DNA of 64,000 nucleotides. Origin: an uncultured Nitrospinaceae bacterium (GTDB lineage Bacteria; UBA8248). Position 1 is the first letter of the stretch, and each line of letters opens with the position of its first letter. The notes under the pieces are model-generated. The model had not been told where the DNA came from, did no database searches, and saw nothing but the letters and a program-made list of their open reading frames with translations. The DNA lies in contig CAXFSR010000043.1 in the NCBI GenBank assembly GCA_964005815.1, positions 99,307 through 163,306 of the forward strand, in the 5' to 3' direction. The translations under genes and the position numbers were made by a program. Below, in pieces: positions 1,849-63,970 of this stretch.

Positions 1849-2928
1849 CTACTTCTTTTTCTTCTTTTTCTTCTTCTTGTAAATACGAACTTTCATACCT
1901 TTCATAATCTTTCCAAATTTCTTAAGCATTTTTCTTTTGTTTTTAATAAAATTCTTCTGACTAAATCCAAGAAGATTTTCTGGAGCAGTAAGCTTTGGAT
2001 CTCTAGGGTGGTATGACTTAACATCTGTTCTCGTTGGAGGATATCCACCATCTTTTGTCATAAGCGCTTGCACTTTTGCAGAACTTTCCCAATCTATCCA
2101 TAATTTTGCAGCATTAGGATTTGGTGGATTTGCACAAATTGCTACAGGACTAGTCTTTTTCGAGATACCCTCTTTTGGATAGACAGGAGATACAGATTGT
2201 CCTTTTGCTTTTCTTCTTACAAGATCGTGTTCATTTGCTATGACTAGAACGTCTGCTTCACCATTGATTAAAGCAAGTGCTGCAGTAGAAGTAGCTTTCA
2301 ATAAAAGAGGTTTATTTTTTGCTAGTTCTTGAAAATATTCCCAACCAAAACGTTTCACCATTCCAGCCATCCACCACCTTGCTGGACCACTTTTCCTAGG
2401 ATCAACGATAGCCAGACGACCTTTCCATTTTGGGTCTAAGACATCTTTCCAACTTTTTGGTGCTTCAGAATCTTTAACATTCTTTGTATTGTATCCCATC
2501 GAACCAATTGTTGTTCTAGATGGAGTTATCCAACCTTCTGGATTTGCCAATCCTTTATGAAAAGAGGAAGTATTTCCAGTAACATACTTCTTCAACAAAC
2601 CTTCTTTCTGCCATCTTATAAAAACTGTAGGATCACCAGTAGAAACTATGTCACATTTAAGAGCACCAGCCATTTTTTCGGCGGTTACCATTCTTATAAT
2701 TCCACCAGTTCCTTTTCTGGTCCACTTAACTTTAATACCATATTTCTTCTCAAAACCTTTAACCAATTTTTTTAACACTCTACGGCTAAGGCTATGATAT
2801 AAAACAACCTTACCTTCTTTCTTTGCGTCTTGAATCAATTTTTCAGATGCGGCATTAACTTGATTCAATCCAAAACAACTGATTGAAAAAAGTAATGCAA
2901 ATGCTGCTAAAGACACTTTTTTAAACAT
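1849..2928 (-). CDS. ABC transporter substrate-binding protein (Fe3+/thiamine/polyamine FbpA-like cluster) with poly-Lys tail
   Basis: Signal peptide; AKKEGKVVLY, PKSWKDVLDPKWKG and PNPNAAKLWIDW motifs of the SBP_bac_6/8 families. Confidence 0.85.
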   Translation of the reverse strand: MFKKVSLAAFALLFSISCFGLNQVNAASEKLIQDAKKEGKVVLYHSLSRRVLKKLVKGFEKKYGIKVKWTRKGTGGIIRMVTAEKMAGALKCDIVSTGDPTVFIRWQKEGLLKKYVTGNTSSFHKGLANPEGWITPSRTTIGSMGYNTKNVKDSEAPKSWKDVLDPKWKGRLAIVDPRKSGPARWWMAGMVKRFGWEYFQELAKNKPLLLKATSTAALALINGEADVLVIANEHDLVRRKAKGQSVSPVYPKEGISKKTSPVAICANPPNPNAAKLWIDWESSAKVQALMTKDGGYPPTRTDVKSYHPRDPKLTAPENLLGFSQKNFIKNKRKMLKKFGKIMKGMKVRIYKKKKKKKKK

Positions 2929-2962
2929 TCTTATACCCCCTTAGTTTAAAAGAAAACAAAAT

Positions 2963-4039
2963 TTATTGTCTCAAACAAACACAATATTGTGGTGGAAATT
3001 CCATAGAAATTTCATCGCCGATTGAAACCGCACTATCAAAAGTAGTTTCAACAGAGATTTCTTTATCATTTATGCCAACCGTATAACGACTATATTTTCC
3101 ATAGTATTGTTTTTTCAAAACTTTCACATTAAAAGAGTTCACTGCTCCTGTTGATATATTATTGTGAAATTTCACCCATTCAGGACGAATACAAAAAGTA
3201 CCTTCTTTACCTTTAATATTTACTAATTGTTGTTGAACAGTAATAGGGCCAAGATCTGTTTTCATAACAACAGAATTATCAGTAGATTCTTCAATCACAT
3301 CTCCAGAGAAAATATTAGAAGTACCAATAAAACTTGCAGCAAATGTATTAACAGGTCTTTCATAAAGATCTTCAGGGGTTCCTTCCTGTACTTTTAATCC
3401 ATGATCCATGAGTACTATTCTATCTCCTAAAACCATAGCTTCTTCTTGATCGTGAGTTACATATATAAAAGTAATCCCTATCCTGTTATGGAGATCTGAC
3501 AGTTCTTCTCTCATCTCTACTCTCAAATTTGCATCCAAATTAGAGAGAGGTTCATCTAAAAGAAGAAGGGATGGATCAACAACAAAAGCTCTTGCTAGTG
3601 CCACACGCTGCTGCTGTCCACCCGACAGTTCAGTCGAATATCTATGTTCCAAGCCATCAAGTTGCACCATTGAAAGTGCGTTATGCACCCTCTCCGACAA
3701 CTCACTTTTTGGCACTTTTCGAACTTCCAATCCATATGCCACATTCTGAAAAACTGTCTTATGTGGCCAAATAGCATAAGACTGGAAAACCATAGACATT
3801 TCTCGTTTGTCTGGAGGAAGAATTTCGTGATTATCAGAAACAATCTTGTCTCCCAAACGAATCTGCCCCTGATCAGGCTTTAAAAATCCTGCAATAGTCT
3901 TAAGTAAAGTAGTTTTTCCACATCCACTAGGACCTAAAAGAACTACAGCCTCTCCATTTTTGATTTTTAGAGAGAAATTATTTAATGCTACTGTCTCTTC
4001 AAATTCCTTAGTCACGTTGTCAATAAATAGATCAGGCAA
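2963..4039 (-). CDS. ABC transporter ATP-binding protein (FbpC/PotA-like)
   Basis: Walker A GPSGCGKT, signature LSGGQQQR, Walker B LLLDEP, VTHDQEEA, C-terminal TOBE-like region; TTG start. Confidence 0.93.
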   Translation of the reverse strand: MPDLFIDNVTKEFEETVALNNFSLKIKNGEAVVLLGPSGCGKTTLLKTIAGFLKPDQGQIRLGDKIVSDNHEILPPDKREMSMVFQSYAIWPHKTVFQNVAYGLEVRKVPKSELSERVHNALSMVQLDGLEHRYSTELSGGQQQRVALARAFVVDPSLLLLDEPLSNLDANLRVEMREELSDLHNRIGITFIYVTHDQEEAMVLGDRIVLMDHGLKVQEGTPEDLYERPVNTFAASFIGTSNIFSGDVIEESTDNSVVMKTDLGPITVQQQLVNIKGKEGTFCIRPEWVKFHNNISTGAVNSFNVKVLKKQYYGKYSRYTVGINDKEISVETTFDSAVSIGDEISMEFPPQYCVCLRQ

Positions 4040-28143: not shown

Positions 28144-29553
28144 CTAAACCGAAGAAGTTATGACAGGCCTTCCAATCCCCTGAAAAATCCTTGTAACTTC
28201 ATCTGTGATCCGAACTAGAGCATTATAAGTGTGTTCCGTTATAAACTGCCCTCTCTTCTCAAAATTCTTCAATTCTTCCTGTGAATCATGCGAAGCATCA
28301 AGACAAAAAGCTTTAACCTGAGAGGCAAACTCAAGAGATTCTGCATATGCGTACTTCGCCTGTTCAACTGAAGAAAAAGCAAAATCTTTTGCCTTTTCAA
28401 ATATTTGTTTTTCTTCTGATTCCTTAAGATCAACCGTGATATCTTCTCTTTTTTCAAAAGAATCTGCTTTCATAAAAGCGTTTCTTGCATGTTCATTAGC
28501 CCGTGATGCGGCACTAATCAGAGCATCAAAAGCTTCAGATATTGAAGACATTTGCTTTACTTCAACTGGTATCGTCGGGTCAGTCTGCGTACTCAATTGA
28601 GAAGTACTCTCCAACATAGCATCTTTTCTACGTTCATCGGCAATCTTGAGTGCTTCATCATCAACCATAATATCAATTCTTTTTGCAACTACCCTTTTAC
28701 TTGGCGACACTACATCCCATGCAAGACCTAATTTTTCCATACATTTAATAACTACGTAAGAAATATCGAATTCGAACCACCTTTGACCATGAGCAGCTGA
28801 ACGTTGATCCGCGTGATGATTGTTATGCCAACCTTCTCCAAATGAAATCAGTGCAACCCACCAGTTATTGGTACTGTCTTCATCAGTATTATAATTTCTA
28901 TATCCCCATAAATGTGTAGCAGAGTTTACAAGCCATGTCGCATGCCAGAGAAAAACGGTTCTAGCAAAAACTCCCCAAATCAACCACGACAATCCAATAC
29001 CCGCATATAATTCTCCTGCTGCATAGATTATCAAAGCAGTGGCAATGTAAATCATATAAAAATTTTTATTTAGAAAACGCTGTACTGGATCCCTCGCTAA
29101 ATCTTTCGCAAAACGAGAGTACTGTTTATAAGTATGCGCTCCAGGCATGTCATAAAACAACCATCCTGCGTGCGCCCATAGAAAATTTACCAAAGGAGAA
29201 TGAGGATCAGGTTCTTCATCTGCTTCCTTATGATGAATCCTATGCATAGCAGTCCACTCTATAGGACCAGATTGCAAGGCCTGACAAGCACAAAAAGTTA
29301 AAAAATATTCCATCCATTTATAGGTTCGAAAACTTCTGTGAGTAAGTAATCTATGATAACAAATCGTAATACCGAACATCCCAGTTAAAACATACATAAA
29401 AAATGCGACAGCAAGACCAGAATAGGTAAAGAGATCTTCCCTAAACGCAAGCAATGCAACCACGTGAATCATGCCAATCGCAACGATGGTTGTCCATTGG
29501 AGTTTTCTTTCATCTTTTTTATAAATTGCGAGTTTTCTAGATTCTACAGCCAA
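28144..29553 (-). CDS. Acyl-CoA/acyl-lipid delta-9 desaturase with C-terminal extension
   Basis: His boxes HRLLTH, HRIHH and GEGWHNNHH, plus VNSATH; about 170 extra C-terminal residues; TTG start. Confidence 0.92.
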   Translation of the reverse strand: MAVESRKLAIYKKDERKLQWTTIVAIGMIHVVALLAFREDLFTYSGLAVAFFMYVLTGMFGITICYHRLLTHRSFRTYKWMEYFLTFCACQALQSGPIEWTAMHRIHHKEADEEPDPHSPLVNFLWAHAGWLFYDMPGAHTYKQYSRFAKDLARDPVQRFLNKNFYMIYIATALIIYAAGELYAGIGLSWLIWGVFARTVFLWHATWLVNSATHLWGYRNYNTDEDSTNNWWVALISFGEGWHNNHHADQRSAAHGQRWFEFDISYVVIKCMEKLGLAWDVVSPSKRVVAKRIDIMVDDEALKIADERRKDAMLESTSQLSTQTDPTIPVEVKQMSSISEAFDALISAASRANEHARNAFMKADSFEKREDITVDLKESEEKQIFEKAKDFAFSSVEQAKYAYAESLEFASQVKAFCLDASHDSQEELKNFEKRGQFITEHTYNALVRITDEVTRIFQGIGRPVITSSV

Positions 29554-59627: not shown

Positions 59628-60536
59628 TTATTGTGTATAAATACTCTCTCTCGTTGAGGGATTATCATACTTTCCTTCTTTAATTGAAAATTTTTGCAAA
59701 AGCACTTGATACAAACCCAGTCCTCCTCGATAAAATGCAGTAGATGAGCATACTAGCCATAGCCTATATATCCTATATATTCGCTCTCCAACCATATCTC
59801 TAATCTTTTCTGCGTGTTCTTCAAGATTATGAAACCAATCACGACACGTTTTTGCATAATGTAATCGCAAATTCTCTACATCAAGAATTTCCCATCTTTC
59901 TTGCTCCATCACATTCATAATATTTGTTATATTATCTAATTCTCCGTTTGGGAAAACATTTTTTTGGAGAAAATCATTCTGACTTGTTTCAACCCGAAAC
60001 TTTTGACAAGTGATCCCATGGTTCAGAAATAGACCATCATCTTCTAATCTGTTTCTTACATTCTTAAAGAAAGAAGGATAATTTGCAATTCCTATATGTT
60101 CGATTATTCCAATAGCAGATATCTTAGAAAACTTCTTTTCTAAGGGAAAATCTCTATAATCCATATGCAAAACTCTACATCTATCAGACAAACCTTCCCT
60201 CTTAATCCAATCACTAGCCCACTTAGCTTGTTCTTTCGAAAGAGTGACCCCAGTCGCATTTACTCCATAATGTTTGGATGCCCAAATCGCTAAACTCCCC
60301 CAACCGCAACCAATATCTAAATATGAGTCTTTAGAATGCATACGCAATTTCTTGCAAATCAAATCCATTTTATCTTTTTGGGCATTTTCTAATGTTTTTT
60401 CAGCAGATCTGTAATATGCACACGTATAGAGCATATTCTCGCACAGAAGCAATTTATAAAATTCGTTAGAAAGATCATAATGAAATGAAATTGCTTGGGC
60501 ATCTGTTGTTTTAGTTCGGTTTTCTTTAATACTCAT
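59628..60536 (-). CDS. cfa: Cyclopropane-fatty-acyl-phospholipid synthase, catalytic domain only
   Basis: AISFHYDLSNEFY, YTCAYY, AQ..KMDLICKKL, LDIGCGWG, GVTLS.EQ, DYRD, EH.G, NHGI, HYAKT. Confidence 0.88.
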   Translation of the reverse strand: MSIKENRTKTTDAQAISFHYDLSNEFYKLLLCENMLYTCAYYRSAEKTLENAQKDKMDLICKKLRMHSKDSYLDIGCGWGSLAIWASKHYGVNATGVTLSKEQAKWASDWIKREGLSDRCRVLHMDYRDFPLEKKFSKISAIGIIEHIGIANYPSFFKNVRNRLEDDGLFLNHGITCQKFRVETSQNDFLQKNVFPNGELDNITNIMNVMEQERWEILDVENLRLHYAKTCRDWFHNLEEHAEKIRDMVGERIYRIYRLWLVCSSTAFYRGGLGLYQVLLQKFSIKEGKYDNPSTRESIYTQ

Positions 60537-60548
60537 TTTTCCCTCAAA

Positions 60549-61676
60549 TCATCCTATCCCGAACGCGCCCTCTAAAACAAAACGCCTTCTTAACCAAGCA
60601 TTCTTACACATTATCTTCGCGATATTTTGTGTAAAATTACTAGGCAATAATTCTATAAACTTATCCCCCAAGGTAATCTGACCATTCCCATAAAGTGTGT
60701 AAATTTGTTCTTGATAGTTATCAAGACTTTTATAAGAATCAAGAAAATCTATTATATTCTCGCTTGCCAAATTTGAACTCTTAATTGCCGGACCTATACC
60801 CTCACCACTGAAATCTTGGGCGAGACCAGCAGCATCTCCAACTAGTAGAAATCTTTCACCTATAATACTCCTAACAGATGTTCTATATATAGAATACGCA
60901 TGTCCTTTAAATTTAGTAAGACAAATTCCTTCTCTTATCCTTCCAGATTTTCTGAGAATTCCCAAAAATCTTTTTAATCTTTCGTGAACACTTGGTTCTT
61001 TTCCAATACAACCTACTCCAATATTAAGATAATCGCCTTTCGTAAAATACCAAGCATATCCATTAAAATCAGGTTCCGGAAACAACTCAGGCAAACCATA
61101 ATTTGGAGCAATTGATTCCAAGACATTAGTACCTATATTTGTTTCACTCTCTTGTGTTAAAACAACCGATTCCTCTGATGAAATTGAACCAGAAATTCTT
61201 GCAACTGGACAAGTATGCCCACCTGCTCCAACAACAATGGTAGATTTAAATTCTTCTTTATCTGAATAAATCGTAACTGAATCATTGTTAAATTTTATAT
61301 TTCGGACACGCACTCCGCAACGGACATCCACACCTTCTTCTTTTGCTCGATTCAATAAAAAATGATCAAATTCATATCGGATGATTCCATAACTAGCGGG
61401 TTCATCCCACTTTGTCTCATAAGACTTACCTTCACAATCAATAAATATCGAAGAAAATGGTTGAATCGTTAAGGGATAGTCATCTGGATCTAATTCAAGG
61501 TCAATCAACGCCTGCTTCGTAACCCAACCAGCACATAATTTAACACGAGGAAACATTGAAGAGTCTAATAGTAAAACTTTTTTTTTGGATAAAGCAAGTT
61601 TTCTGGCAACGGTACTGCCAGCAGGACCTCCACCTACGACAATCACATCCCACAATTTTGAATTTACAACATCCAT
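60549..61676 (-). CDS. Geranylgeranyl reductase-like FAD-dependent oxidoreductase
   Basis: VGGGPAGS, FPRVKLCAG, RYEFD..LL, GYAWYF.KG..LNIGVG, VGDAAG....SGEGI. Confidence 0.88.
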   Translation of the reverse strand: MDVVNSKLWDVIVVGGGPAGSTVARKLALSKKKVLLLDSSMFPRVKLCAGWVTKQALIDLELDPDDYPLTIQPFSSIFIDCEGKSYETKWDEPASYGIIRYEFDHFLLNRAKEEGVDVRCGVRVRNIKFNNDSVTIYSDKEEFKSTIVVGAGGHTCPVARISGSISSEESVVLTQESETNIGTNVLESIAPNYGLPELFPEPDFNGYAWYFTKGDYLNIGVGCIGKEPSVHERLKRFLGILRKSGRIREGICLTKFKGHAYSIYRTSVRSIIGERFLLVGDAAGLAQDFSGEGIGPAIKSSNLASENIIDFLDSYKSLDNYQEQIYTLYGNGQITLGDKFIELLPSNFTQNIAKIMCKNAWLRRRFVLEGAFGIG

Positions 61677-62029
61677 ATTTTTATTCCAAAAATTATTTTT
61701 TTCATAAATGAAATCTCTAAATAATCAAAGCAATCTGCTGCTGCAATCGACTCAAACAAATCTCCTTCTATATCTATCAACTGATCACAATATGCCTCCG
61801 CAAAATTTGCGGCCGAGGGATTTAATAAAATTTTTTTTAAAATTTTCATAGATGAAAAATGAATCTTTACAGGTTGAACTTTTCTACCAACTTCGATTTG
61901 AGTACCGTCCCACAAAACGAATGTCAGTCCATATTCAAGATCAGAAAACAAGGAAGTCAGAATCTCAGAAAGCTTAGAAGTTCCACCATTTTCTAAAGAT
62001 TTCATTTGTGTAGTCATATTGGCCACCAA
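61664..62029 (-). CDS. Stand-alone N-terminal domain of Cfa-type methyltransferases
   Basis: F.LWDGT...G...V.I......L..IL.NP....FAEAY....IDIEGDL matches the N-terminal lipid-binding region of long Cfa proteins. Confidence 0.72.
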   Translation of the reverse strand: MVANMTTQMKSLENGGTSKLSEILTSLFSDLEYGLTFVLWDGTQIEVGRKVQPVKIHFSSMKILKKILLNPSAANFAEAYCDQLIDIEGDLFESIAAADCFDYLEISFMKKIIFGIKIWML

Positions 62030-62121
62030 AATGTGTTCTTTTATTGAAAATTTATTTTAAAAATACGACAATATGAAGTCAATAGTTCTTTTTGAAGAGT
62101 ATCAAAAAATGTAGGGGTAGA

Positions 62122-62976
62122 TTAAAAATTAATAGTCACTAATACAACACCGATTACTATTGTAATTGATGCTAACACTACTCGAGGTGTTATTTTTTCT
62201 TTGTTTCCTAAAATTAATGGCGCAAGAAAAAGAGTGAACAATGGAACTGTTGCAACTAATGGAGAAACTTTATAAACCTCGCTCTTGCTTAGCGCAAAAA
62301 GCAGAGTGAATTGAGCAGATGCCATTGCAATTCCTGAAAGAATAAAATTTCTACTACTTCTTGAATTAAAAATAAATGGCTGCCAATTATTACTCAATTT
62401 CAAGAAAATAGGCCCGAAAATAGATGCTGACAAACCTTGAGTAAATCCTGCAAGCAATAAAGATGTATGAGGTTCAATACCTGTTTTCCTTAGAGCATGA
62501 GCCAATCCAAAACACATTGCAGAAATTAGAGGAAGGAAAAGAAACTTCGATCTTCCCATTTTCTTTCTGTCTCCTCCCGAAATAAAAACTATGCCCATAA
62601 CCACAAGAATGATTCCAATCCAAACAAAAAGAGATGGCCTTTCTCCAAGAATAAAAAAGGCAGACAATGCCCCGAAGATTGCATGGGTGTTCGAAACTGC
62701 ATTTGTTCTAGCAACTCCAATACGTTCTATAGACATAAAAAGAAATAATAAAGAAAGAGCGGGAGACGACAATCCAGCTAAAATAAAAAACCACATATTG
62801 TTTGCAAATGTAAAATTTGAGAAGTCCACAAAAAAGAGTGAAAATGCAAAAAGAAGAAATTGAGTTTGCAAGACTACAAAACTACCTGTTTGCGGGGTAC
62901 TAGAATCCAACCCTCTTCGAGTTAGTATGCTTGATAAAGCAAAGAAAAAAGCGGGAATCAACCCAAGAAAATCTAT
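62122..62976 (-). CDS. DMT/EamA family transporter
   Basis: About 10 TM segments, IERIGVAR, FILGERP, VSPLVATVPLF. Start is either TTG 62961 or ATA 62976 (GGAG SD 8 nt upstream). Confidence 0.85.
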   Translation of the reverse strand: MDFLGLIPAFFFALSSILTRRGLDSSTPQTGSFVVLQTQFLLFAFSLFFVDFSNFTFANNMWFFILAGLSSPALSLLFLFMSIERIGVARTNAVSNTHAIFGALSAFFILGERPSLFVWIGIILVVMGIVFISGGDRKKMGRSKFLFLPLISAMCFGLAHALRKTGIEPHTSLLLAGFTQGLSASIFGPIFLKLSNNWQPFIFNSRSSRNFILSGIAMASAQFTLLFALSKSEVYKVSPLVATVPLFTLFLAPLILGNKEKITPRVVLASITIVIGVVLVTINF

Positions 62977-63007: not shown

Positions 63008-63970
63008 TTATATTTCTCCGAAGACTTCTGAATTTACTAGACCTAAGGGCATCAATCCAGAAAGAGCGTCTGTAAGGTTTTTGCAGGTTTTCTCAATTGC
63101 AAGATTCTGTGTTTCAGGAGTTCTCGATGAGTTATGAGGTGAAATAAAAACGTTTTCAAGACTCCATAAAGGATGATTCTTTGGAAGTGGCTCTGGATCT
63201 GTAACATCCAATCCTGCCCCATAAATCTTTCCTGATTTGATCCCATAATAAAGATCATCAGTTACTACTATTTCACCTCTAGAAACATTAACAAGTATAC
63301 AATTTTCTTTCATAAGACTTATAGTTTCCTTGCAGATCAAACCTCTTGTTTCCTTTACTAAAGGCAAAGACAAAACAATAAAGTCTGAAATCCTAAATAT
63401 GGTTTCTAAAGATACAAACTTAATTTCAATACCTTTGCAAATAGAAGAATCCGGAGTCCTAGTATTTACGTAAATTTCCATCCCAAAACCTTTTGCAATT
63501 TGAGCAACATGCAATCCAATATTTCCTAGACCAACTATCCCTATTTTCTTTTTTGCAAGCTGAACTCCAAGTGTATGCTTCCATTCTTCTTGCGCATCAC
63601 GCATCCAAGCATGGCGTGAAATATGTAAAATCATAAGAAAAACATGTTCAGAAACTGCCTGCCCTCTCACTCCTTCTACATTACAGACCATCACTCTCGA
63701 CTCAGTTGCAAATTTCAAATCTATATTGTCTATTCCTGCACCCGGTTTTACAATGACTTTTAAATTGGTCGCTTGAGAAATCATTTCTCTTGTAACTTGA
63801 GAAAAGACGGTGACAATGGCATCCGTTTCTGGCAAATAGTGTTTTAAAACATCTATTTCAAAACTTTCTGGATATATTATCTCATTTCCAGTCCCATTCA
63901 TCTTTTTTTGTAATTCTAATTTCCAAGCAGGGGACGTGAGCAATGGATCTACAGCCAAAATCCTTCCCAA
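63008..63970 (-). CDS. D-2-hydroxyacid dehydrogenase (SerA/GhrB-like)
   Basis: GAGIDNID, AVSEH, GLGNIG, NVSRG, LDVTDPEP, SPH. Confidence 0.92.
   Translation of the reverse strand: MGRILAVDPLLTSPAWKLELQKKMNGTGNEIIYPESFEIDVLKHYLPETDAIVTVFSQVTREMISQATNLKVIVKPGAGIDNIDLKFATESRVMVCNVEGVRGQAVSEHVFLMILHISRHAWMRDAQEEWKHTLGVQLAKKKIGIVGLGNIGLHVAQIAKGFGMEIYVNTRTPDSSICKGIEIKFVSLETIFRISDFIVLSLPLVKETRGLICKETISLMKENCILVNVSRGEIVVTDDLYYGIKSGKIYGAGLDVTDPEPLPKNHPLWSLENVFISPHNSSRTPETQNLAIEKTCKNLTDALSGLMPLGLVNSEVFGEI

Follow-up and report, generated by a model that had tools for sequence, protein, structure and literature searches.

A probable split and re-ordered variant of tmpBA marks the Nitrospinaceae and may direct the synthesis of 10-methyl fatty acids

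The window analyzed here is a stretch of 64,000 nucleotides from contig CAXFSR010000043.1 of an uncultured Nitrospinaceae bacterium (assembly GCA_964005815.1). It carries three coupled genes encoding a Cfa-like methylase, divided into two polypeptides, and a flavoprotein of the geranylgeranyl reductase (GGR) family. These genes appear to be a split, re-ordered variant of tmpBA, the ten-methyl-palmitate operon published by Blitzblau 2021 for Desulfobacter, Desulfobacula, Marinobacter hydrocarbonoclasticus, and Thiohalospira halophila (PMC7791843). A preliminary description had proposed a candidate novel lipid-modification module; however, the kind of pathway is not new, since the pairing of a Cfa-like methylase with a GGR-like flavoprotein had already been published as tmpBA (PMC7791843). 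The same description held that the flavoprotein partners of such methylases lie outside the GGR family, which is true of BfaA but false for TmpA, the partner encoded in tmpBA (PMC7791843). Its account of the gene layout, on the other hand, is borne out by the minus-strand open reading frames (ORFs) and by their junctions as read: the first two genes overlap by 13 nt, with the N-domain stop codon inside the first flavoprotein codons, and a 12-nt gap separates the second from the third. No prior description of the split form was found in the literature searched, which mostly excluded subscription journals and patents, and the N-domain family DUF7884 was likewise without papers there. The features of the locus are as follows.

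62029..61664, minus strand: stand-alone Cfa N-terminal domain gene (DUF7884), 121 aa; proposed lipid-binding half of a split TmpB
61676..60549, minus strand: gene for a TmpA-like flavin adenine dinucleotide (FAD) protein of the GGR family, 375 aa; putative 10-methylene reductase
60537..60548, minus strand: 12-nt spacer with a GAGGG ribosome-binding site, preceding the ATG of the catalytic-domain gene
60536..59628, minus strand: Cfa/CMAS catalytic-domain gene (S-adenosylmethionine (SAM) methyltransferase), 302 aa; proposed catalytic half of a split TmpB
62054..62082, minus strand: promoter-like site TTGACT-17-TAAAAT, in the 92-nt gap between an EamA gene and the N-domain gene

The likeness to tmpBA lies in a Cfa-like methylase gene that adjoins, and is co-oriented with, the gene for a GGR-like flavoprotein. 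TmpB is the Cfa-like methylase of the published operon. Four of the five tmpBA operons gave 10-methylene-palmitate (10-methylene-16:0) in E. coli, the TmpB homologues tested yield methylene and not cyclopropane acids (PMC7791843 Table 1), and TmpB prefers C14-C16 delta-9 chains while accepting C14-C18 monoenoic acids (PMC7791843 Table 2). TmpA, encoded beside it, is described as a putative reductase resembling archaeal geranylgeranyl reductases (PMC7791843), and in organisms with tmpBA it is the saturated 10-methyl acid that builds up (PMC7791843 supplementary Table S2). The T. halophila TmpB is one chain of 408 aa whose N-domain (LWDG ... IDGDL) is of the same kind as the N-domain of the window (PMC7791843). 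Compared by eye, the window flavoprotein and the published TmpA have in common the motifs FPR..K.CAGWVT, GYAW...KG..LNIG.G, KFKGHAY, and GDAAGLA...SGEGI; computed identities to tmp-like proxies are 42% for a Thiohalorhabdus locus (L040) and 34-40% for fused-type metagenome loci. Unlike the published operon, however, the window encodes its methylase as two polypeptides cut at the interdomain linker instead of a single tmpB, and its gene order is N-domain, flavoprotein, catalytic domain (hereafter N/flavoprotein/catalytic) instead of tmpB then tmpA. The carriers differ as well, those of the split form being aerobic nitrite oxidizers and many soil lineages.

The actinomycete system for 10-methyl-stearate, bfaAB/tmsAB, resembles the window in its logic, a Cfa-like methylase producing a 10-methylene acid that a flavoprotein then reduces. 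In contrast, its gene order is opposite and BfaA uses NADPH. BfaA also belongs to a different flavoprotein family from TmpA, without meaningful homology (PMC7791843 Fig. 1 legend), and by that description would stand apart from the window flavoprotein, which lies in the GGR family.

The domain identities given in the preliminary description (Cfa N-domain, FAD reductase, Cfa catalytic domain) agree with the matches of the three products to DUF7884, TIGR02032, and PF02353, respectively. The N-domain protein matches DUF7884 at E 2e-9 (38 bits against a cut-off of 27, Pfam) and covers positions 5-79 of the CfaB model (NCBIfam). An AlphaFold (AF2) model built from 28 sequences has a predicted local distance difference test (pLDDT) score of 86.9, and in structure it comes closest to the N-terminal domains of the cyclopropane fatty acid (CFA) synthases 7qos and 5z9o (Foldseek E about 1e-3), with a VIA Z of 7.8 against 7qos residues 5-86. 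Many SCP2 entries follow at Z 6-7.4, and UbiJ (6h6n/6h6o/6h6p) at Z 5.3-6.9; because every Z is under 8, and thus middling, the assignment of an SCP2-like fold is reasonable but not strong. A profile search (E <= 1e-5) recovered 1279 N-domain proteins that stand alone, 55-212 aa long and typically of 113-115 aa, together with 47 longer relatives, nearly all of them ordinary fused Cfa enzymes. One of the 47, P0124 (590 aa, on one metagenome contig), would be a fusion of N-domain and flavoprotein, but is most likely the product of a frameshifted contig, since its flavoprotein alignment decays to Arg-rich text after about residue 300. Long frames of 489-861 aa in relatives were likewise rejected as fusions: the ORF listing gives separate genes in high-GC DNA.

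The third gene encodes the catalytic half. Its product matches PF02353 (CMAS) at E 1e-87, covers positions 95-393 of the CfaB model, carries the SAM motif LDIGCGWG, and aligns with 7qos at E 1.2e-57. Residue 18 of this protein aligns with position 119 of the 6bqc chain, within the linker of the E. coli enzyme, where residues 100-120 form a disordered interdomain segment (PMC9851988). The split thus falls at the interdomain linker of Cfa enzymes. When the gene for E. coli Cfa is artificially split so that the N and C domains are made as two chains, the two co-purify by affinity (PMC9851988), and because these separately made domains stay together, a two-subunit methylase is plausible. A complex prediction for the N-domain and the catalytic domain, with the flavoprotein as partner, returned an interaction prediction score from aligned errors (ipSAE) of 0.00 in both runs, a value that has no bearing on binding either way.

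The active site is equally recognizable. Glu146, His173, and Tyr227 are identical to positions 240, 267, and 318 of chain 6bqc_A, and the bicarbonate ligands of the E. coli enzyme are Glu239/His266/Tyr317 (PMC11387697); we infer that the three residues are the bicarbonate ligands of the window enzyme, assuming that the 383-residue 6bqc chain has one extra N-terminal residue. With that one-residue offset in the numbering, the retention of this Glu/His/Tyr set, as proposed in the preliminary description, holds. The window methylase therefore shares with E. coli-type CFA synthases (6bqc; 7qos, 5z9o) the same two domains, the linker position, and the bicarbonate ligands. It differs in that the E. 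coli-type enzyme is a single chain that forms cyclopropane rings without a partner reductase, whereas the N-domain of the window is a separate ORF.

The flavoprotein encoded between the two halves scores 166.7 bits against the geranylgeranyl reductase family model TIGR02032 (cut-off 158.8, NCBIfam). A profile of 12 flavoprotein sequences finds its best solved relative in 3oz2, a digeranylgeranylglycerophospholipid reductase, over nearly the full length (E 1.9e-24), and this alignment matches both the Cys of the CAGW motif and the G-Y-x-W region. Across the 12 aligned members, G15-G20 (the GxGxxG FAD motif), C48, and G280-A283 (GDAAG) are invariant, and the region of the reductase-type Cys and G-Y-x-W motifs is conserved in all 12. 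The archaeal reductases represented by 3oz2 and TIGR02032 therefore share with the window protein the FAD fold, the conserved Cys, the G-Y-x-W...K-G region, and the GDAAG motif. However, the similarity amounts to only about 20-30%, and the context of the window suggests a methylene-branched acyl, not a prenyl, substrate. The same genome also encodes another flavoprotein alongside a methyltransferase (L015; contig C54: 19697-23002, with ORFs 1928-3088, 1303-1920, and 2-1276, all minus). There, the gene for a 386-aa FAD protein (lycopene-cyclase/FAD_binding_3 matches; 26% identity to the window flavoprotein) is followed by the genes for a 205-aa class I methyltransferase and a PMT_2 glycosyltransferase.

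The split module is a hallmark of the Nitrospinaceae within their phylum. In a survey of 51 genomes, in which an orthologue was defined as a flavoprotein match at E <= 1e-100, the flavoprotein is present in the genome of the window and in 40 of the 41 other Nitrospinaceae genomes (53-87% identity), whereas none of the 10 genomes from three other families has an orthologue even at E <= 1e-60; these contain only paralogues of 30-34% identity. The sole family genome without the orthologue, G016 (97% complete), has a best match of E 2.8e-7 and may have lost the gene. Among 12 loci fetched from relatives, 11 show the N/flavoprotein/catalytic order as three ORFs, and the twelfth is truncated where its contig ends. 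A scan of species-representative genomes, whose 28 loci partly duplicate those of the fetched relatives, gave the same order in 24, including a metagenome-assembled genome (MAG) assigned to 'Tectomicrobia', and one further locus that was cut. The other three comprise a Thiohalorhabdus N/catalytic/flavoprotein locus, a gammaproteobacterial locus at a contig edge, and a divergent methylase preceding a flavoprotein. In the Thiohalorhabdus sp. MAG (L040:830-3235), the N-domain is a separate ORF whose stop lies 5 nt before the catalytic ATG, and the flavoprotein gene follows; the split thus also exists without the re-ordering. In the divergent case (L043:1-906), a methyltransferase with 29% identity to the window catalytic domain, on a tree branch of length 6.68, precedes a fused-type flavoprotein gene, and the flavoprotein may therefore also pair with a different type of methylase.

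Metagenomes extend this pattern. A scan with the 12-sequence flavoprotein profile yielded 80 loci, which were classified with hidden Markov models built from the three window proteins. The N/flavoprotein/catalytic form is the most frequent, with 38 complete loci and 12 that are consistent with it but cut by a contig end; 20 complete loci have the published tmpBA layout, a fused N plus catalytic gene followed by the flavoprotein gene, and in 7 a catalytic domain precedes the flavoprotein but the locus is cut upstream. Overall, the flavoprotein adjoins a same-strand Cfa N-domain and/or catalytic domain in 77 of the 80 loci; of the 3 in which it stands alone, 2 lie on contigs long enough to include such a neighbor and 1 on a contig too short to tell. 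The preliminary description had named a one-off insertion as the outcome that would undo its proposal; synteny clearly argues against one, since the triad is widely conserved, in genomes of the family and in metagenome loci alike. No recurrent accessory gene (ferredoxin, desaturase, or other) was found by Pfam matching among 80 flanking ORFs from 16 loci. Because the flanking genes vary by lineage, the three genes are read as the whole module.

Phylogenies of the two enzymes follow the architecture of the loci. The flavoprotein tree (a quick IQ-TREE search) has 112 rows from 120 loci, 8 having been left out for covering fewer than 300 model positions. The 29 fused-type rows are set apart from the rest with a Shimodaira-Hasegawa-like approximate likelihood ratio test (SH-aLRT) value of 100. 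Among the remaining rows, a clade of 80 (support 97) unites all 79 N/flavoprotein/catalytic rows with one flavoprotein-only locus, and its sister group is a trio of the Thiohalorhabdus type (support 99). In the catalytic-domain tree (91 rows), one branch (support 98) sets off all 68 split-form rows, and another (support 90) the 22 fused or upstream-cut rows. Both trees thus agree on the architecture groups, with fused-type and split-type loci as sister clades, which indicates that flavoprotein and methylase have travelled together. Both searches were quick, several branches are long, and related rows are not independent of one another. The split, re-ordered form thus has a single origin or was disseminated from one source. 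The trees are unrooted, and a direction from fused to split to re-ordered is simply the simplest reading of them.

We consider it probable, by a modest measure, that the module performs tmp chemistry, in which methylenation and subsequent reduction of delta-9 acyl chains would give 10-methyl fatty acids. In the proposed mechanism, the N-domain, with its probable SCP2-like lipid-binding fold, and the catalytic domain would form a two-subunit SAM-dependent methylase. This split methylase would act on C14-C16 acyl chains bound in phospholipids, attacking their cis-delta-9 double bond and creating a 10-methylene branch, and the FAD protein encoded between the two halves would reduce the exomethylene to a methyl group, yielding mid-chain branched lipids of the 10-methyl-hexadecanoate type. 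TmpB chemistry in the split form, the reductase role of the flavoprotein, the position of the branch, and an electron donor are all points that we infer. A suitable delta-9 substrate is available, since 16:1 cis-9 is a dominant fatty acid of Nitrospina (PMC3660363). The preliminary description had offered methylation combined with either reduction or ring-opening as a route to branched lipids; methylation followed by reduction is the best supported version, while ring-opening is without support, and no pointer to either ring-opening or furan acids was found. A further lipid lead comes from candidate division NC10. Two stand-alone N-domain proteins carry NCBI names of Candidatus Methylomirabilis sp. 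and of candidate division NC10, one of the two shares 77% identity with the N-domain encoded at a metagenome locus of the split form, and in the ESM Atlas, as a lead only, Methylomirabilota is the commonest phylum in two of the nearest DUF7884 clusters. The lipids typical of Ca. Methylomirabilis include 10MeC16:0 and 10MeC16:1 (PMC6581649, PMC9125203).

Several observations weigh against tmp chemistry and have to be set beside this evidence. TmpA itself was inactive in E. coli and in yeast (PMC7791843 section 27), and its reductase role is putative even there; its authors suggest, as a guess, oxygen sensitivity or a missing electron carrier (PMC7791843). The apparent likeness of the window proteins to TmpA and TmpB draws on motifs compared by eye and on proxy loci. 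The flavoprotein scores 19.7 bits against the GGR catalytic domain PF22578, under its cut-off of 27. The catalytic-domain protein is under all the NCBIfam Cfa/CfaB equivalog cut-offs, with 312.3 bits for CfaB (cut-off 650), 245.3 for PRK11705 (400), and 235.6 for the Brucella type (600). The bicarbonate ligands cannot tell the product, since they are kept in cyclopropane-forming and methylene-forming enzymes alike. As to lipids, the dominant fatty acids tabulated for Nitrospina (14:0, 16:1 cis-9, and 16:0; PMC3660363 Table 2) include no 10-methyl acid, and no link between Nitrospina and 10-methyl fatty acids was found in the literature searched. The putative link to Methylomirabilis, finally, is made of source names and the 77% N-domain match, not of an NC10 triad.

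Part of this evidence can be read in other ways. The catalytic-domain gene is the only CMAS gene of its genome above the PF02353 cut-off, its product keeps the three bicarbonate ligands and finds its best scores against cyclopropane synthase models and structures, the characterized GGR members named by the matched NCBIfam models act on isoprenoids, and TmpA has never been active on a fatty acid in the published work (PMC7791843). All of this would fit an ordinary cyclopropane fatty acid synthase that happens to be split, with a flavoprotein acting on another membrane lipid (a polyprenyl, a quinone, or a hopanoid side chain), the genes being neighbors only because both remodel the membrane. We regard such an arrangement as distinctly unlikely: the flavoprotein clade stands beside a Cfa piece in nearly every one of the metagenome loci counted above (77/80) while the other flanks vary, the trees of the two enzymes recover the same architecture groups, the tested TmpB homologues form methylene acids (PMC7791843 Table 1), and the dominant Nitrospina lipids of PMC3660363 include no cyclopropane acid. 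The inactivity of TmpA as a reductase in two hosts could also mean that the flavoprotein does not reduce at all, but isomerizes or desaturates a 10-methylene or allylic methyl intermediate supplied by the methylase, giving 10-methyl-16:1 or furan-type acids. The presence of 10MeC16:1 delta-7 in Ca. Methylomirabilis (PMC6581649) and of halogenases and monooxygenases among the next-best solved relatives of the flavoprotein would agree with this. It is nevertheless a very unlikely outcome given that the best full-length solved relative is the reductase 3oz2, that the reductase-type Cys and G-Y-x-W region is found in 12/12 aligned members, and that tmpBA organisms accumulate the saturated acid.

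The substrate, too, could be of another kind. Some CMAS-related methylases act on non-acyl olefins, and a prenyl double bond might be C-methylated and then saturated to give methylated saturated isoprenoid lipids. The membership of the flavoprotein in the GGR family is in keeping with such a substrate, as is the resemblance of the N-domain model to SCP2 folds including UbiJ, whose PDB title is ubiquinone synthesis protein. However, the catalytic half shares 44-45% identity with the Cfa protein encoded at the Thiohalorhabdus tmp-like locus and is closest to phospholipid CFA synthases with an N-domain, the tested TmpB proteins accept C14-C18 monoenoic acids (PMC7791843 Table 2), and a conserved isoprenoid gene lies beside the module in none of the 16 loci scanned; an isoprenoid product would surprise us most of all. 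The preferred assignment thus remains tmp chemistry on delta-9 acyl chains.

The surroundings of the module add some detail on its expression and inheritance. The window is AT-rich (GC 0.32-0.41, about 0.35), and the source assembly measures 2.24 Mb. The listed TTG start of the N-domain gene (62029) is doubtful; the real start is probably the ATG at 62017, four codons on, which is favored by an upstream GGTGG and by an ESM Atlas protein that begins at residue 5. The GAGGG in the 12-nt spacer before the ATG of the catalytic-domain gene agrees with the ribosome-binding site (GAGG) that the preliminary description had assigned to that half. The promoter-like site at 62054..62082 matches 10 of 12 consensus positions and is the best of 16 sites, but shuffled sequences average 10.7 sites, so that it is a consensus match only; a scan of the locus for terminators found none. 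In a marine metatranscriptome search, short contigs in 2 libraries (2 studies) cover parts of the flavoprotein and catalytic genes; 5 of the 6 pieces are at least 99% alike to the locus, and one spans the 60537-60548 junction. No contig from these two marine libraries lies over the N-domain gene or the promoter region, and because DNA carry-over is possible in such libraries, the matches are a hint only. Within the genus, the N-domain and flavoprotein genes have dN/dS values (ratios of nonsynonymous to synonymous substitution rates) of 0.10-0.15 and 0.11-0.13, respectively, and the catalytic gene has one of 0.05-0.08. These values are rough since dS is about 1-2, near saturation. Purifying selection acts on all three genes. 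Genomes of the genus are small (2.0-2.2 Mb), those of other family members measuring 2.3-8.0 Mb and mostly 3-4.6 Mb, and the module is intact in 4 of 4 of them despite this size.

Directly upstream of the module lie the genes for an EamA-family transporter (62122-62961, minus strand) and a D-2-hydroxyacid dehydrogenase (63008-63970, minus strand). Many Nitrospinota and 'Tectomicrobia' loci, and only these, retain the same arrangement, which soil-type loci lack. Downstream, a convergent ORF resembles D-Ala-D-Ala ligase, as recognized by tblastn synteny only. A fatty acid desaturase gene (28144-29553, minus strand; 469 aa; PF00487, E 1.9e-21), which the preliminary description had proposed as the possible source of the unsaturated chains, is situated 31 kb from the module, and a desaturase adjoins the module in 0 of the 16 related loci scanned for neighbors.

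A broader reading addresses the role of the free N-domain. UbiJ presents lipid to several methylases and flavoproteins. As a small free SCP2-like fold it offers a functional analogy, and only that, for a free N-domain serving two enzymes; the likeness is a structural match alone, at middling Z. The free N-domain gene is placed before the flavoprotein gene and often overlaps it, an arrangement that would be compatible with a subunit used by the two enzymes in succession. Taken together, the free N-domain could be a shared lipid-presenting subunit that draws the acyl chain out of the bilayer and passes it on, first to the methylase and next to the flavin reductase, and the split form, instead of fused tmpBA, could be the main environmental route to 10-methyl-16:0, including in NC10 methane oxidizers and Nitrospinaceae. 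This joint proposal is speculative and, as a whole, rather unlikely. A shared lipid-presenting N-domain would, however, explain both why the domain was cut loose and why the N/reductase/methylase order is kept throughout a large clade. If the proposal is true, an oxygen-tolerant, active TmpA-type reductase exists in these aerobes, and aerobic nitrifiers are also a source of the lipid used as a marker for sulfate reducers, anammox bacteria, and NC10.

A natural Cfa split at the linker, fixed in a large clade, is a ready system for probing the role of the N-domain, and TmpA-type enzymes from aerobes would provide a direct test of the guess that oxygen sensitivity or a missing electron donor underlies the inactivity of TmpA. 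There is also a demand for mid-chain methyl-branched acids as feedstocks for lubricants (PMC7791843). In lipid biomarker work, 10-methyl-hexadecanoate is widely used as a marker for Desulfobacter-type sulfate reducers, actinomycetes, anammox bacteria, and Ca. Methylomirabilis. A working pathway in Nitrospinaceae and many soil lineages, if true, would mean that 10-methyl-hexadecanoate signals need to be re-read. The Nitrospinaceae are abundant and are the ocean's main nitrite oxidizers, and they may be an overlooked source of this marker lipid.

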